Positions 2,876-14,173 of a DNA stretch of 64,000 bases are shown one piece after another. Within the stretch, counting starts at the first letter, position 1. Each line of letters begins with the position of its first letter. Where the stretch lies: positions 1 through 64,000 of the IMG/VR virus record IMGVR_UViG_3300032897_000001; one strand, given 5' to 3'. The stretch is from a virus. Made by a program: the position numbers and the translations under genes. Under the pieces are notes generated by a model that saw nothing but the letters and a program-made list of their open reading frames with translations, did no database searches and was not told the origin of the DNA.

Positions 2876-3060
2876 GAGTAGATATCCCGGCCTGCCGGGT
2901 CAAAAGCAGGAGGATACAGAGGGATATGTATATTTTCCGACGTATCCCGAAGGAATATCCCGGCCTGCCGGGTTAAAAGCAGGAGTTGGACAGAGTCGAT
3001 TTCCCTACTGCGGTAATGCGGTTGAAGAAATACCCCGGCCTGCCGGGTTAAAAGCGGGAG
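2876..3060 (+). CRISPR. CRISPR-like array 1: 3 repeats of 37 nt, 2 spacers of 36 and 38 nt
   Basis: Repeats at 2876-2912 (degenerate 5' end), 2949-2985 and 3024-3060, directly upstream of the TnpB-like gene. Confidence 0.85.
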
Positions 3061-3063
3061 CTA

Positions 3064-4521
3064 GTGGTGTACACAGAATCAGAAGATTCTAACATAGATA
3101 GTGTGCTCAATTCGAGGGAAGCTAACACAGATCAGCCGCGCATTGATCGCCGTTATTCGTGGAAGTTGCACCCCACAGCACAGCAAGATGCGCGCTTACA
3201 CGAACAGGCCCGCATGTGCACCGAATTGTGGAACGCACTACTCGAAATTGATTTTATATTACAGAATGTCCGGGCATGGGTTTTTGATAAGGACGCCTTG
3301 GGGCCATTGGTATTCGATTTAGCGGGGAACCTGCGGGTTGTGTCCTTGGCAGATATTTTGCTGCGCAGGCAATACGGCTTGCGCACACGTGCAGAGCATC
3401 TGGTTACTGCGATCGGTGCCGCTGGTGCAATTCAGTATCAGCCGGGACAAGATATCCGCACACGGTTGCCTAGCGCGTATGATCGCGGGTACTGGATCAC
3501 GCAGTTACGCGACTTGCAGCCCGAATGGCTGGCATTGTCAACATGGACACCTAGACAGGTTAGCGAAAATCTCGCCAAGGCATGGAAACACTGTTTTACG
3601 CCCCGCGCTAAGCGCATTCCCGGAAGAAAGTACGGCGCACCGCGGTTCAAATCGCTGGCGAATGCCTTTGCCATACCCCATCGGTTTGCCAGTGGCTGCC
3701 GGTTGGAACATGCCGGTATGCACGAACGCAGTTGGTGGCTTTATCTAGACGGTGTTTCCGATCAGAAGCTGTGGCGCCGTGGGCGCGGACGCGGCGACGT
3801 GTGGGCACGCGGAAAGCTGCCATCACCAGCGCTTAAGTGGACGGACGCGGATGTGCGTCATGTTGATGGACACTGGGAAATATCCGCTGCTGTTGTCATG
3901 GAACAGCGCCGCACTTTGATCGGGCGCGGTATTCCGATCACGGTTGAGTTCTGTGTCATTGGTGGTCTTGCACTGGTCAATAACGAGCAAGTGGAACTTG
4001 TCGAATTGATAAAGGCACAGGAACTGGACGTTAAACATGCAAATATGCAGCGTGAATTTGATCGGAATTGGCCACGCAACAAGCGCTGGACCGATGATGA
4101 ATGGAATAACCGTTGTGAGGATAAGGCCGAAATCGGCAGGCTTGCGTCACACATCGCCCGAGTGCGCCGCAACGCACTCCATGTGTGGACTAAGCAACTG
4201 GTAGAACGCGCAAGTGTGTTGACTATTATTAAACCGGCTTCTATCAAGGATTTTACACAGACGGCCCGCGGAAATGTGAAAAACTGGGGTGCGGCCGTTG
4301 AGATAGTGTCGGAAATTAACCGCGACACGCTATCACATGCGCCGGCTATGGCTGTGCAGATGCTGGAATACAAGGCGGAAGAACTTGGCATTCCGTGTCA
4401 AGTCATTGAAGATGATACACCAGAAATTTCCATTAGTAAGGCATTTGTTGCCAGTCGTAAGGTATCCCGACGCAGCGCGCGCGAGACAAAGAAAGGCGTG
4501 AGTGAAAATGAGAAAGATTAA
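3064..4521 (+). CDS. TnpB/Cas12-family RNA-guided protein, predicted nuclease-dead and C-terminally truncated
   Basis: N-terminal RRYSWKLHPTAQQ...LWNALLE (IS605 OrfB HTH-like), GAPRFKS and INRDTLS...QMLEYKAEELG. The RuvC-I position reads ITVEFC instead of GIDLG and RuvC-II reads TIIKP instead of xEDL. No CxxC zinc finger and no RuvC-III DxNAA. Exact start codon uncertain. Confidence 0.85.
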   Translation: MVYTESEDSNIDSVLNSREANTDQPRIDRRYSWKLHPTAQQDARLHEQARMCTELWNALLEIDFILQNVRAWVFDKDALGPLVFDLAGNLRVVSLADILLRRQYGLRTRAEHLVTAIGAAGAIQYQPGQDIRTRLPSAYDRGYWITQLRDLQPEWLALSTWTPRQVSENLAKAWKHCFTPRAKRIPGRKYGAPRFKSLANAFAIPHRFASGCRLEHAGMHERSWWLYLDGVSDQKLWRRGRGRGDVWARGKLPSPALKWTDADVRHVDGHWEISAAVVMEQRRTLIGRGIPITVEFCVIGGLALVNNEQVELVELIKAQELDVKHANMQREFDRNWPRNKRWTDDEWNNRCEDKAEIGRLASHIARVRRNALHVWTKQLVERASVLTIIKPASIKDFTQTARGNVKNWGAAVEIVSEINRDTLSHAPAMAVQMLEYKAEELGIPCQVIEDDTPEISISKAFVASRKVSRRSARETKKGVSENEKD

Positions 4522-4744
4522 TCCCGCGATCAAGACTGAAATCGACATTCTTGCTGAATCCGTGGACATGGCCAGAACAGCCTCTAAGAGAGTTCTTGAT
4601 GGCTGTGCGCCGAATGCCTGCAATGTGGCTGTGCGTGCATCACGCTCACTTCAAGGTGCTGCAATGGGGATGATCCGTGCACGGCTTGTAGGTAACAAGA
4701 TTGCCTATCTGGAGTCGAATCTGGACGACACCGGAGAAAAATGA
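4502..4744 (+). CDS. Small helical hypothetical protein overlapping the end of the TnpB-like gene
   Basis: 80-aa ORF lying between the effector gene and array 2. Confidence 0.5.
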   Translation: MKMRKINPAIKTEIDILAESVDMARTASKRVLDGCAPNACNVAVRASRSLQGAAMGMIRARLVGNKIAYLESNLDDTGEK

Positions 4745-4779
4745 TTGACGCTGCGAGCGCTGTAATGCTAACAAAAAGC

Positions 4780-4918
4780 CGGCCAGCGCTAGCATGTTGA
4801 AATAACAGCGGATTTCGGCGAAATCCGCTGGCGCTGCCTAGCAAGGCGAGTGCCATGACATGGAGCACTCGCAAACGGGCGAAATAGCGCAATAAATTGC
4901 GGGTGTTGGCATAAGGCT
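4780..4918 (+). ncRNA. Structured leader, candidate tracr- or omega-like scaffold RNA
   Basis: TTGACG (4745) followed by GCTAAC resembles a promoter. Hairpins at 4806-4830 and 4846-4872 plus cgcaat/attgcg. GGGTGTT (4901-4907) is complementary to AATACCC in the repeat. Confidence 0.5.
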
Positions 4919-5252
4919 GAAGAAATACCCCGGCCTGCCGGGTTAAAAGCAGGAGGGCAAGTGATGCGCCCACGTCTAGCCATGGATCGCGCCGAAGAAA
5001 TACCCCGGCCTGCCGGGTTAAAAGCAGGAGGCCCGACGCGAGGCAAAGCAACGCCGGCAATTGGAGAAGAAATACCCCGGCCTGCCGGGTTAAAAGCAGG
5101 AGTAGGGCGGGCGAACGACATCATAGGCAGTGTAGGACAGCTTGAAGAAATACCCCGGCCTGCCGGGTTAAAAGCAGGAGATCGCGGGCGGACAACTCGT
5201 CATCCGGCTGGTTGTGAAGAAATACCCCGGCCTGCCGGGTTAAAAGCAGGAG
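4919..5252 (+). CRISPR. CRISPR-like array 2: 5 identical 37-nt repeats, 4 spacers of 38, 35, 41 and 35 nt
   Basis: Repeats at 4919, 4994, 5066, 5144 and 5216, separated by unique spacers. Confidence 0.92.
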
Positions 5253-7676
5253 CAACAACGAAGAACTAACGGAGAAATACTATGGACGCACTAGACTTAG
5301 CCGGGTTGTTGATGCTGATTGGCGCCCTGTTTATCGGGTTTTGCTGGGGAAAGACGGGGAACAGCGGCGGTTTTGTCGCCGGCTGCCTGATCTTTTTCGG
5401 CGGTTGGGTTATATTTTGCCTAGGATGGCTGGCAACATATGTGGGCGGGACGGCGCTGATTATTGCGCCCGCACCCGTGTTTGTCATTGCGTTTTTCGCC
5501 ACGCTGAACAAGAAACACAACCCATATCGTGAGGACTAAGGAGGTTGACATGTGTGGGGTACGGGTAAGTGATGTTCGCCCGGGAACGAAGCTGATTGGC
5601 GATGGCTTGTGCTGCACAACTGCGAACGTTCCCATGGAAGTGCGCAAAGAAGGCGGGCGCCTTTATGTGCTTTGTGAAGACGGACGGCATTGGCTGGTGC
5701 CACAGGATGGCCGTTACGTCGGGTTTCGGTTGGCTTGATAACTTGATAAGGAGTGGCCACAACATGAGTTGGAAACTGATCGGACGCTTTACCCACATCA
5801 AGCATGATGGTGATTACTTGATGTCCGTCGTACCAGACGACGATAAATGGGAGTGGCGCTTGCTTCACAGCAAGAATGTCCTTGCAAGCGAGAGCGGATA
5901 CGACACCAAGGAAGACGCACAGGATGCTGTGATGAAACAGCTTACCAAATACAGGGAACTCGAATGATGTCCTTTCGTATGATAGCACTTGTGGCCATTC
6001 TGGCCCTTCCTACCTGCAGCGCACGCGCTGCAGACTGCCAGAATAAGGACTACTCCCCTTATTCCGAAGATCACGCCTGTGTTAATAAGTATTACGAGGT
6101 TATGGAGATTGCCCATAACCTTGGCCGTGTCCTCTATTATGAGGAAAAGTGCGGTCTGCAATATGAACCAACGGCTGTTGCCCGTTACATCCGGGAACAC
6201 ACACCGAATGATCGCTTTGATTTTTCCGGGTGGGTGAACACCGCAGCCAGTTATGAAAGGACCATGGAGAAGACTTTTGATAAAGGTTCTGTGAGTCCGA
6301 ATACTCTGCTTGCTGTATGCACAAGCATACAGATGGCTGCAAAGCATTATGGGTTTGTGAAATGAACAAAGAAGGCGCCACACGTCGTGTGAAAACAACT
6401 TGGGAATTGATGTTCGAAGGCTTGGCGTGCCCGCATTGTGGGCTTATCAGGATGCACAAGCACTATTACCCTGGTCCGATTGACACCGCCCTGCAGCACG
6501 ATGAAAACGGCAACTATTGGACATGGAGTCCCCGGGACAATGAACAAGAACCCATCTGAGCAAGCCGTGTTATCCGTTGCCGAAGGAATACACGGCACGT
6601 GGTACTATCATCTATGGGTTCAGCCAAAGAATTCTTCCGGTGGAAAAGCGTTGTGTGGTGCCCAGGTGATGGTCACAAGCATTCCCATGTCGGCATGGGG
6701 AACACGGACGCATCTCAATGAGCGTTGGTGCAGTCTGTGTAAGAAGCTGACAGAGCCGCGGGTTGATCCGCAGGCTGTGGCAGCATTTGCAAATACTGAT
6801 GTGCCACTACCCACCAATCTGCCTGAACGCCTGGAAGAAGCCGCAACACGTCTAGACACAGACGATGACTTGCCTTTCGGATTCGTGCAGGTTTTTCGAG
6901 AGGCAGCGGCACGTATCAGAGAACTTGAGAAGCAGTGCAACCGGCTGGAATTACTTGTGCCCAGCCCGCAGGGGGAGGATACGGGTTTTGTGTGAGAAAA
7001 CGAGCCGTGCTCTTGAGCAGGCGATTCGTAAATGGGAAGCAATTGTTGCGGGTTCAGGCCGCGATCTAGGACCTGAAAATTGTGCTCTATGCCAGTTATT
7101 CTATTATAAAAACTGTGTTGGCTGTCCTGTTTATCAAAGCACGGGTCTGCGTTATTGTGCAGGTTCGCCATATGAAGAGTGGTCCTATTATGGGTATAGG
7201 TCCGCCACAGATGGCGGCGATATTGTCCCCTATGAACTTGCCAAGAAAGAGTTGGAGTTTTTGAAATCTCTTAGAAATCCTGTAACTGACTTTAGTAAGG
7301 GAGTCCCCCATACATAGGGTAATAAACCATCGGAAGGGATAAGAACGTCATGGATGAGCAAACGAAACAGGCTCTTGAAGGATCAATCGACAAGTGGGAA
7401 GCCATCGTTGCTGGCACCGGTGTTGACCGGGGTCGTCATAACTGTCCGTTGTGTAGGCTATTTTACATCCTTGGATGTAAAGGCTGCCCGGTTTACCTGA
7501 AAACCGGCGCACAGAATTGCAGGAAAACGCCTTACGAAAGATGGAAAATTCACGGTTACCGGCTTTATGGCTGTAGCACGATTGAAGGGACAAAAATTAT
7601 GGAGATGGCGCGGGATGAACTGGAGTTTTTGAAATCGCTGCGGGAACCGTCTGCCAACGTTTCGTAGGAGGTTCTC

Positions 7677-8233: not shown

Positions 8234-8270
8234 GTTTGAATAACCCGGCCTGTCGGGTCAAAAGCAGGAG
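8234..8270 (+). repeat. Solitary degenerate copy of the 37-nt repeat
   Basis: gtttgaataacccggcctgtcgggtcaaaagcaggag, intergenic. Confidence 0.8.
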
Positions 8271-8960: not shown

Positions 8961-9041
8961 GTTGACGTGCCGCAAGGGTAGCGGACCATTCTGTGACCAC
9001 GCACAGAGCGGAAGTCGCGGGTTCGAATCCCGTCGTTGACA
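8961..9041 (+). tRNA. tRNA-His(GUG)-like gene with a 9-nt insertion in the anticodon loop
   Basis: Acceptor GTTGACG/CGTTGAC, D arm CCGC/GCGG, T arm GCGGG-TTCGAAT-CCCGT. The anticodon arm is 26 nt instead of 17. No encoded CCA. Confidence 0.7.
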
Positions 9042-11382: not shown

Positions 11383-11419
11383 TCTTGAATACCCCGGCCT
11401 GCCGGGTTAAAAGCAGGAG
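11383..11419 (+). repeat. Solitary copy of the 37-nt repeat overlapping the RBS of the gcrA-like gene
   Basis: aataccccggcctgccgggttaaaagcaggag ends 12 nt before ATG 11432. Confidence 0.88.
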
Positions 11420-11431
11420 AAAAAGTAGACC

Positions 11432-12100
11432 ATGACAGAGCAACAACAGCGTTTGGATTTTTGGGCACAGTGCACACCGCTTCTTAGGAAGCTGGCCGCG
11501 GAAGGCGTCACCGCGCCCAAAATCGCCATGCGTTTGTTTGAAGAGACAGGAACCCCGATTTCCTCGCGATCGGTACGGGAGAAGGCACAGCGTCTCGGAA
11601 TCAAACTCGTCTCAACGATTTCGGAATCCCCGTGGGATGGCAAGACTGAACAGCTTAAGGAAATGTGGGAACAGGGCGTAAGTGCATCACAGATCGGTGC
11701 TAAGCTTGGCTTGTCCCGTAGTGCAATTATTGCCAAGGTGCATAGGCTGGGTTTGCCACGGCGCATGTGGGTGACGCCAGCGATTAAACCACAACTCGCG
11801 CCACAGCGGCCATTGTCGAATGTCAAGCCTGCAACTAAGGCATTGCCGAAACCTGCGGCAAAGCCTGTGTCGCAGGTTAAGTCTGATGATACGGACTTTC
11901 CCGTAGAAAGTGGACATGGGGAATCCGACACTACAGAGACGCGTACATCAAAAAACTGCTCTATCATGGAGTTGGACAGCCAGCACTGTCGCTGGCCTAT
12001 CGGGAAGCCCGGGACACCGGATTTTTGCTATTGTGGAGAAACACCGGTACGCGGCAATGTGTATTGTGCTAAGCACCATCGCATGGCGTACAATCTGTAA
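11432..12100 (+). CDS. gcrA: GcrA-family cell-cycle transcriptional regulator
   Basis: LKEMWEQGVSASQIGAKLGLSRSAIIAKVHRLGL plus C-terminal CRWPIGKP...FCYCG...YCAKHHRMAY. Carries an extra N-terminal HTH-like segment. Confidence 0.9.
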   Translation: MTEQQQRLDFWAQCTPLLRKLAAEGVTAPKIAMRLFEETGTPISSRSVREKAQRLGIKLVSTISESPWDGKTEQLKEMWEQGVSASQIGAKLGLSRSAIIAKVHRLGLPRRMWVTPAIKPQLAPQRPLSNVKPATKALPKPAAKPVSQVKSDDTDFPVESGHGESDTTETRTSKNCSIMELDSQHCRWPIGKPGTPDFCYCGETPVRGNVYCAKHHRMAYNL

Positions 12101-13971: not shown

Positions 13972-14048
13972 GCGCGCGTAGACCAACGGTAGAGTCCGGT
14001 TCCTCAAAAGAACTCCAAGTATCGGTTCGAATCCGATCGCGCGCACCA
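13972..14048 (+). tRNA. tRNA-Leu(CAA) with a short variable region
   Basis: Cloverleaf with acceptor GCGCGCG/CGCGCGC, anticodon loop CT-CAA-AA, TTCGAAT T-loop and encoded ACCA. Confidence 0.88.
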
Positions 14049-14099: not shown

Positions 14100-14173
14100 G
14101 GCTCCCTAGTCCAATTGGCAGAGACGACGGTTTTAGAAACCGTGCGTTCCGGGTTCGAATCCCGGGGGAGCCA
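14100..14173 (+). tRNA. tRNA-Leu(TAG) with a short variable region
   Basis: Cloverleaf with acceptor GGCTCCC/GGGAGCC, anticodon loop TT-TAG-AA, TTCGAAT T-loop and discriminator A. No CCA. Confidence 0.88.

Follow-up and report, generated by a model that had tools for sequence, protein, structure and literature searches.

A truncated TnpB-like protein, a small helical partner and pseudoknot repeat units in a phage module that may silence DNA under RNA guidance

Introduction

TldRs, repressors that are TnpB-like and nuclease-dead, are proteins of TnpB origin in which the RuvC triad is disrupted and the C-terminus is truncated, and some of them are encoded by phages (Wiegand et al. 2024, bioRxiv 10.1101/2023.11.30.569447; PMC13622181). 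A locus with these features is described here from the IMG/VR virus record IMGVR_UViG_3300032897_000001. The analyzed stretch, referred to as the window, comprises the first 64 kb (positions 1 to 64,000) of this 100,794-bp record, which is rated complete by CheckV. The locus contains the gene of a 485-aa TnpB-like effector, the gene of a 78-aa partner protein and two CRISPR-like arrays. On balance, the module is probably a two-protein, CRISPR RNA (crRNA)-only, nuclease-dead, TnpB-derived type V-like DNA binder for multiplexed silencing. As in TldRs, the expected action is RNA-guided binding without cutting.

The described TldR clades (fliC-, csrA- and oppF-associated) each use one long omega-RNA-like guide located by the gene and have a defined host promoter as their target. 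The window instead contains arrays and dispersed 27-nt pseudoknot units, and the word 'array' does not occur in PMC13622181. The locus also differs from TldRs in having a partner protein that looks obligate, and searches of the phage genome revealed no complementary promoter. TldR hosts are Enterobacteriaceae and Firmicutes (PMC13622181), whereas the phages considered here appear to be alphaproteobacterial.

The TnpB proteins of IS200/IS605 elements (ISDra2, PDB 8exa/8h1j; ISFba1, 8iaz) give the best fold match to the effector (Z 22.6 and 17.0, respectively) and share with it the WED-REC-RuvC order and a pseudoknot directly ahead of the guide. TnpB uses one ~130-nt omega RNA that overlaps the gene end, in contrast to the multiple short guide units of the window. 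Active TnpB has the D-E-D triad of RuvC and a zinc finger, and the window effector has neither. As to residence in a transposon, no Y1 TnpA is encoded in the 100.8-kb phage, although insertion sequence ends were not explicitly searched, and the effector gene sits in a conserved phage module with the partner gene and arrays.

Cas12n (V-N, formerly V-U4; RdCas12n, PDB 9j09; PMC12216341) is a small monomeric effector near TnpB that also comes with CRISPR arrays. However, Cas12n has nuclease activity, a zinc finger, RuvC-III and a 170-nt trans-activating CRISPR RNA (tracrRNA) that overlaps the open reading frame (ORF), whereas the window effector has an incomplete RuvC and no anti-repeat was found near it. 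Cas12m (V-M) is a small effector with arrays and without adaptation genes that is located on mobile elements and blocks transcription without cleavage (PMC11656645). It is larger (~600 aa) than the 485-aa effector, and its fold match (Z 13-14) is below those of TnpB and Cas12f. Cas12m keeps the zinc finger and the RuvC residues used in crRNA processing, and it is not known to have a partner protein. The dCas12f-sigmaE system (PDB 9n9c/9n9m; PMC13472631) also combines a dead miniature Cas12/TnpB-like protein (fold match Z 16-16.6) with a partner. There, the partner is an extracytoplasmic function sigma factor that activates transcription, and the system belongs to Bacteroidota and uses long guide RNAs, whereas no sigma-factor signature is seen in the partner in the window, a helical hairpin of 78 aa.

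Altae-Tran et al. 2023 (PMC10691335) reported 40 unnamed V-U groups, including V-U24 with a non-canonical RuvC-I and a small helix-turn-helix (HTH) protein. These groups, compared here by description only, likewise derive from TnpB, are associated with arrays and lack adaptation genes; they include inactivated forms and forms with a small companion gene. The partner in the window shows no HTH match, in contrast to the V-U24 companion. Adaptation genes are missing from many type V subtypes as well (PMC10691335), so the absence of Cas1 and Cas2 does not exclude type V membership. In the window and in at least 14 other loci, a TnpB-derived effector lies beside a same-direction array of repeats and unique spacers, and the system thereby qualifies, loosely defined, as a type V-like effector that is associated with an array and has no adaptation module. 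By analogy, its function would resemble those of TldR, Cas12m, Cas12k and dCas12f; its fold is closest to TnpB itself. The kind of system is already known from TldR, Cas12m and dCas12f, and in the searchable literature we found neither the family nor its pseudoknot repeat or partner described.

Results

The effector is a truncated member of the TnpB/Cas12 superfamily

3064-4521, + strand: effector, a 485-aa TnpB-like protein with WED, REC and partial RuvC and a long C-terminal helix (residues 454-484)

A first-pass annotation of the window had identified this ORF as TnpB-like from its motifs, and PRFK, ITVEFC and LEYKA are all found in the protein. The gene caller places the start at the next GTG (3067), which gives 484 aa. 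The effector matches PHROG 506 'transposase' with an E value of 6e-14 and NCBIfam guided_TnpB with an E value of 5e-14 (52.4 bits, under the 100-bit cut-off), and it matches Pfam OrfB_IS605 with an E value of 0.088 only. A relative, P0016, reaches 75.3 bits against guided_TnpB, which is also under the cut-off. With a profile built from 131 relatives, RdCas12n (9j09) was matched at E 3e-19 and ISDra2 TnpB at E 1e-13, and Cas12n was the top sequence match of this family profile among solved structures.

An AlphaFold2 model of the effector was built on the 131-relative alignment (predicted local distance difference test (pLDDT) 87.8, predicted template modelling score 0.82). The top structural match of the model is ISDra2 TnpB, with a Z score of 22.6 and a root-mean-square deviation of 3.2 Å over 315 residues. 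Model residues 26-450 align with residues 2-323 of the TnpB chain, and the match stops ahead of the zinc finger. The next structural matches are dCas12f, LaTranC, Cas12f, Fanzor2, Cas12p and Cas12m (Z 13-17), and the best Foldseek matches are TnpB (E 2.5e-11), dCas12f, Cas12f, Cas12p, Cas12m and LaTranC. The sequence profile and the structure together place the effector in the TnpB/Cas12 superfamily at the fold level, in agreement with the earlier assignment.

The catalytic centre of the effector is lost. Cys297 replaces the RuvC-I Asp, and Pro391 is found at the RuvC-II position. The chain ends 45 residues past the YKA motif without a zinc finger and without RuvC-III. The first-pass annotation had noted the replaced RuvC-I Asp, the missing RuvC-II Glu and the stop before the zinc finger and RuvC-III, and the 131-sequence alignment agrees on each point. 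In the RuvC-I column, Asp occurs in 95 sequences, Gly in 15 and Asn in 12, and Cys is present in the window protein only; the Asp is lost in 36 of the 131 members (27%). At the RuvC-II position, 125 of the 131 members have a conserved Pro. The tail past the YKA motif has a median length of 45 residues and contains a CxxC pair in none of the 131 members. As judged from the alignment, the entire family lacks RuvC-II, RuvC-III and the zinc finger.

Homologues of the effector include 72 proteins at 31-51% identity, and an exhaustive search returned 276 cluster representatives at E <= 1e-3. Among the full-length relatives listed, nearly all end where the window effector ends. The family is nearly confined to viral sequence. 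It was found at 22 loci in IMG/VR, whereas in 185,579 species genomes it was found on two short contigs of metagenome-assembled genomes (MAGs) only, one of them from a Hyphomicrobiaceae MAG. Because the effector belongs to a conserved family of several hundred members, it is not a pseudogene. Decay of this sort, which the first-pass annotation had named as a possible refutation, is not seen: the family is conserved and truncated throughout, and homologues in other phages carry related arrays on the same strand.

The REC region varies within the family. Most members contain an HCxxC ... C..H motif (query residues ~70-135) that resembles a zinc-binding insertion, and in the window protein and its closest relatives, an unrelated insert of low confidence takes its place.

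A small helical protein is predicted to pack on the effector C-terminus

4508-4744, + strand: accessory gene, encoding a 78-aa helical protein, with a 14-nt overlap with the effector stop codon

At each of the 11 loci that were inspected first, the effector is followed by a homologous helical protein. A partner hidden Markov model (HMM) detected the gene directly downstream and on the same strand in at least 21 loci, 11 of which were outside the model-building set, and its matches include loci without a detected array. L022, L032, L070 and L072 have no detectable units and keep the accessory gene. The partner has no family match in Pfam, PHROG or PDB, and a structural comparison with the Atlas returned generic helical hairpins only. 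No fusion of the partner to a longer protein was found, which is weak evidence.

The predicted effector-partner complex obtained a score of 0.65, and the best control obtained 0.00. Of 80 solved complexes, 58 attained this mark, as did 2 of 110 mismatched pairs. The prediction runs agreed in at least 84% of contacts, with a partner pLDDT of at least 72. The predicted interface is formed by effector residues 298-316, 410-421 and 452-482 and covers the C-terminal helix and the surroundings of the former RuvC-I strand. The model gives an indication that the partner occupies the site of the zinc-finger/RuvC-III module of TnpB.

The location of the interface also bears on the possibility that the effector is still a nuclease whose catalytic residues are completed in trans by the partner or a host factor (a split RuvC) and whose targets are cleaved. 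The interface includes the former RuvC-I strand (residues 298-301), the partner has one invariant Glu and one invariant Arg, 95 of 131 members have Asp in the RuvC-I column, and a phage Cas12 that depends on host thioredoxin is known (Cas12p, PDB 9jfs). However, the window effector has Cys297 and Gly300 and its partner still keeps the Glu and Arg, so the residues do not co-vary as a catalytic set. Retention of the partner residues although the effector lost both Asp argues against a catalytic centre rebuilt in trans, as do the loss of the RuvC-I Asp in 27% of members and the lack of a RuvC-III-like motif or zinc finger in either protein. A split nuclease is thus very unlikely.

Pseudoknot repeat units accompany the two genes

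1902-1938, + strand: single unit, a pseudoknot handle outside the arrays, ~130 nt ahead of the ATG at 2070 (42.8 bits)
2876-3060, + strand: array 1, with units 2876-2912, 2949-2985 and 3024-3060 and spacers 2913-2948 and 2986-3023
4745-4918, + strand: gap between the accessory gene and array 2, structured (z -3.45), a leader or promoter region
4919-5252, + strand: array 2, with five near-identical units 4919-4955, 4994-5030, 5066-5102, 5144-5180 and 5216-5252
4956-4993, 5031-5065, 5103-5143 and 5181-5215, + strand: array 2 spacers
8234-8270, + strand: single unit with two base changes, both pairing-neutral (G-U)
11383-11419, + strand: single unit that ends 12 nt ahead of the ATG of gcrA (11432-12100)

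As had been annotated, the 485-aa ORF is flanked by two arrays built from a single 37-nt repeat, one with three copies and one with five, and their 35-41-nt spacers are unique. The 27-nt core of the repeat occurs in 11 copies, all on the + strand, and in none of 100 shuffles. An unfiltered covariance-model scan of the entire window returned the same 11 copies and no others. The six internal spacers all differ from one another (36, 38, 38, 35, 41 and 35 nt), and the unit-to-unit spacing is 73 and 75 nt in array 1 and 75, 72, 78 and 72 nt in array 2. In array 1, the first and second units are degenerate in their 5' part, and the last unit ends 3-6 nt upstream of the effector start codon; its GGGAG could be the ribosome-binding site of the effector. 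The last unit of array 2 is located 29 nt upstream of the ATG at 5282.

Related repeats on the gene strand are found beside the homologues at loci L009, L010, L012/13, L014-L021, L031, L068, L069 and L071. Most family loci carry such arrays, and the units follow the gene and sometimes precede it; at L069, they flank the gene on both sides, as in the window. Unit spacing is regular in the window (72-78 nt), L010, L012, L014, L019 and L020. Several relatives contain dozens of units, which are scattered across kilobases to either side of the gene. Where a complete genome has terminal repeats, the module is located at or near a genome end, and units lie within the terminal repeat.

The repeat folds into two interlocked helices, namely, a 4-5-bp hairpin and a stem that joins the hairpin loop to a segment 6-7 nt downstream. 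Repeat sequences differ among the phages, and the pseudoknot fold is kept. Across 23 units from 12 phages, 99% of cells pair, and compensatory changes are observed in seven of the nine pairs. None of 500 shuffles reaches this level, and no slid register comes near it. As a caveat, a structure-aware scan supplied some of these units, although the loci came from protein homology and most repeats were recognized simply because they recur. The conserved core stops sharply after ...GAG or ...GAT and is followed by variable sequence, which corresponds to the scaffold-then-guide order of TnpB and Cas12 RNAs.

No anti-repeat of at least 9 nt was found within 13 kb of the locus or in the 4745-4918 gap, and duplex energies were undistinctive. 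No tracrRNA was found, nor a conserved location for one: the gap is not conserved in position and is missing in L009, L017 and L018. With no anti-repeat near the locus and the gap missing in relatives, a crRNA-only RNA is the simplest reading, and a wobble-paired tracrRNA is also possible.

Several loci depart from the common arrangement. In G403, the phage of L010, single units are located far from the effector locus at 98-124, 37570 and 37667, and further units lie at 4439-4893 on the minus strand; of these distant units, one falls inside the terminal repeat, ahead of the first gene, and three lie on the opposite strand. The arrays of G405 and G406 cross the genome ends. L011 (8147-8308) has no pseudoknot units and in their place contains a 27-nt hairpin repeat in five contiguous, spacerless copies. 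At L018 (7190-7245), a repeat unit overlaps the effector stop codon and is followed by a 14-nt anti-repeat able to pair with the 3' half of the unit, and a second unit immediately precedes the ribosome-binding site of the accessory gene.

The repeats might not belong to a guide system at all: the 102-aa ORF 4961-5269 in array 2 could code for a repeat protein, or the repeats could be antisense terminators or an RNA like a type III antitoxin. The spacings of array 2 (75, 72, 78 and 72) are all multiples of three and an ORF runs through it, the minus strand has a hairpin followed by a T-rich run, and ToxI antitoxins are 36-nt pseudoknot repeats (PMC8860590). Each of these candidates was rejected, and a non-guide origin is scarcely credible. 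The spacings of array 1 (73 and 75) and of relatives (for example, 72, 74, 76, 76 and 73) keep no reading frame, and the T-run is missing from the repeats of relatives. In ToxIN-like systems, the ToxI repeats are contiguous without spacers and are accompanied by a toxin of the ToxN fold, whereas here the spacers are unique and the protein has the TnpB fold.

A role at the RNA level deserves more weight. The units could be binding or processing sites of the effector in early transcripts, where they would punctuate polycistronic RNA or control downstream translation, and the variable stretches would not be guides. Single units indeed precede genes: units end 3-6 nt ahead of the effector start and 12 nt ahead of gcrA, the G403 units at 98 and 37570/37667 precede ATGs, and the last L031 unit runs into a ribosome-binding site. 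In the window phage, a Shine-Dalgarno-like GGAG closes the 3' strand of the second stem, and unit spacing is irregular in several relatives. Such a role does not account for the arrays of 5-21 units, which have a regular spacing of 71-78 nt and hold no genes to regulate, or for the sharply bounded 3' end of the repeat and the hypervariable sequence that comes after it, an arrangement also seen in guide RNAs. Relatives do not share the GGAG and have GAGAT or GCGAG, and the effector keeps the whole DNA-recognition architecture of TnpB. A purely RNA-level role is therefore unlikely. DNA silencing and an RNA-level role could nevertheless coexist, and binding of the effector to the last unit of array 1 would occlude the effector ribosome-binding site and result in autoregulation.

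Spacers turn over rapidly and have no identifiable targets in the collections searched

The flanking genes of L018 and L021 are ~95% identical, and their array regions differ in length and content. Two spacers are common to the two arrays of L010. As compared among these loci, spacer turnover is fast, with nothing that resembles Cas1-Cas2 uptake; spacers would be gained and lost through recombination between units.

A comparison of the spacers with genomes, plasmids and phages and a search for a shared target- or protospacer-adjacent motif (TAM/PAM) had been suggested by the first-pass annotation, and the outcome was negative: no protospacer and no PAM was found in the phage itself, phage and plasmid collections, viral contigs and ~400 related bacterial genomes. 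Array 2 had no match in 50,697 phage records and 72,556 plasmids, the arrays of L010, which contain 21 spacers, had no spacer match in phages and plasmids, and 20-mers of three spacers had 0 matches in IMG/VR viral contigs. The guides of L031 gave only E >= 0.4 against the MAG binned together with it, which is no match above chance. Against 401 genomes from the order of the Hyphomicrobiaceae MAG, array 2 gave ten weak matches. The best of the ten is a 21-nt exact match of the spacer 5103-5143 inside a conserved AMP-binding-enzyme motif, and it is at about chance level (~0.2-1 expected by our own estimate).

The guides could alternatively steer the dead effector to the phage's own genome, where it would time early and late transcription in a TldR-like manner. 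A single-unit guide of L017 (the 3359-3382/3240-3263 pair) fits this scheme. Counted from its first base, the guide agrees at 23 of 24 nt with a site that lies 95 nt upstream on the same strand; the site has a T-rich 5' flank and is located in the end of the preceding gene; in L018, the same unit is followed by an unrelated 52-nt insert. Apart from this case, ~70 guides from five complete phage genomes, including that of the window, showed no 5'-anchored 13-16-nt match outside the arrays. The 13 5'-anchored matches were without exception duplicates of spacers or repeats, namely, other units of arrays, copies in terminal repeats and one tandem repeat within a spacer. The 11 guides of the window phage had no match beyond 12-13 nt in a BLAST search of its own genome. 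As the purpose of the module, self-regulation is quite improbable; it is possible in single cases and is not a general rule. We infer that external DNA, of the host or of rival elements, is the likelier target, and the databases may simply lack the protospacers.

The phage and its gene neighbourhood

Neither Cas1, Cas2 nor Y1 TnpA is encoded in the entire 100,794-bp record, which extends the first-pass statement that cas1, cas2 and tnpA are absent. The sole public sequencing run that holds the phage is a wetland metagenome (DNA), in which contigs break at repeats, and this run is probably the source of the phage; no RNA run is listed as holding it. The window encodes a homologue of the GcrA cell-cycle regulator at 11432-12100 (Pfam GcrA, E 4e-35) and a Dam-type N6-adenine methyltransferase at 2-721. 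The gcrA homologue and the family contig in the Hyphomicrobiaceae MAG fit an alphaproteobacterial host. An Rfam scan at gathering thresholds detected three tRNAs only in the window (8961-9041, 13972-14045 and 14100-14173).

Two tandem paralogous small genes whose function is not known (2049-2369 and 2408-2770) lie between the single unit at 1902 and array 1 and share 71-78% DNA identity, ribosome-binding sites included. A perfect 28-nt tandem duplication with a short hairpin (1097-1152) is located at the start of a 248-aa ORF (1097-1843) that matches several PHROGs of unknown function. Right after array 2, 29 nt past the last repeat, a small ORF (5282-5539) encodes an 85-aa hydrophobic, membrane-like protein and has its own Shine-Dalgarno sequence.

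Discussion

The module has four parts in the proposed DNA-silencing system: a truncated TnpB-like effector, a helical partner of ~80 aa, guide units and no adaptation genes. The partner would pack on the C-terminal helix of the effector, the former place of the zinc finger and RuvC-III module. Each guide unit would consist of a 37-nt repeat, the 3' 27 nt of which form a compact pseudoknot, followed by a variable guide. We infer that a transcript of the early region would be cut into handle-guide units, which the two-protein complex would load in the way that Cas12 and TnpB take up a 5' scaffold followed by a 3' guide. The loaded complex would bind complementary DNA without cutting it and would keep host genes or rival mobile elements from being transcribed or replicated.

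The first-pass annotation had read the locus as a compact, multiplexed RNA-guided repressor with CRISPR arrays. Its TnpB-like assignment and the missing triad and zinc finger stand, and the partner, the pseudoknot and the dispersed single units had been overlooked, as had the membership of a large, nearly phage-confined family. Because of the first three features, the module is a two-protein system that is less CRISPR-like than first described.

Five observations weigh against DNA silencing by this module. No guide has a target and no PAM/TAM is shared in any of the collections searched. The RuvC-I Asp and a second Asp are retained in 73-83% of members. Unit spacing is irregular (36-121 nt) in L009, L015, L017, L018 and L021, where some 'spacers' measure 5-25 nt only. 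Single units stand in gene leaders, and it is not obvious how they would act as guides there. Finally, TnpB, Cas12f and Cas12n need scaffolds of 130-200 nt, and here the 27-nt pseudoknot alone is evident.

A more specific proposal is tentative and less probable than DNA silencing in general. The module may represent an undescribed phage-specific type V-like subtype with a heterodimeric effector, in which a protein of ~80 aa replaces the zinc-finger/RuvC-III module and a 27-nt tracrRNA-free pseudoknot serves as the scaffold. Its units, in arrays and in early mRNA leaders, would be gained and lost without Cas1 and Cas2, providing hard-wired, fast-evolving multiplexed silencing of host or rival-element genes.

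If the DNA-silencing proposal is correct, a further domestication of TnpB, in lytic-type alphaproteobacterial phages, would join Cas12k, Cas12m, TldR and dCas12f. With an effector of ~430-485 aa, a 78-aa partner and a 27-nt handle, the module would be among the smallest natural multiplex systems, and its compactness would be attractive for tools of the CRISPR interference type. The partner may illustrate how a lost zinc-finger/RuvC-III module is replaced in trans. Moreover, array turnover without Cas1 and Cas2 would make the origin of guide arrays from omega-RNA-like units directly testable.

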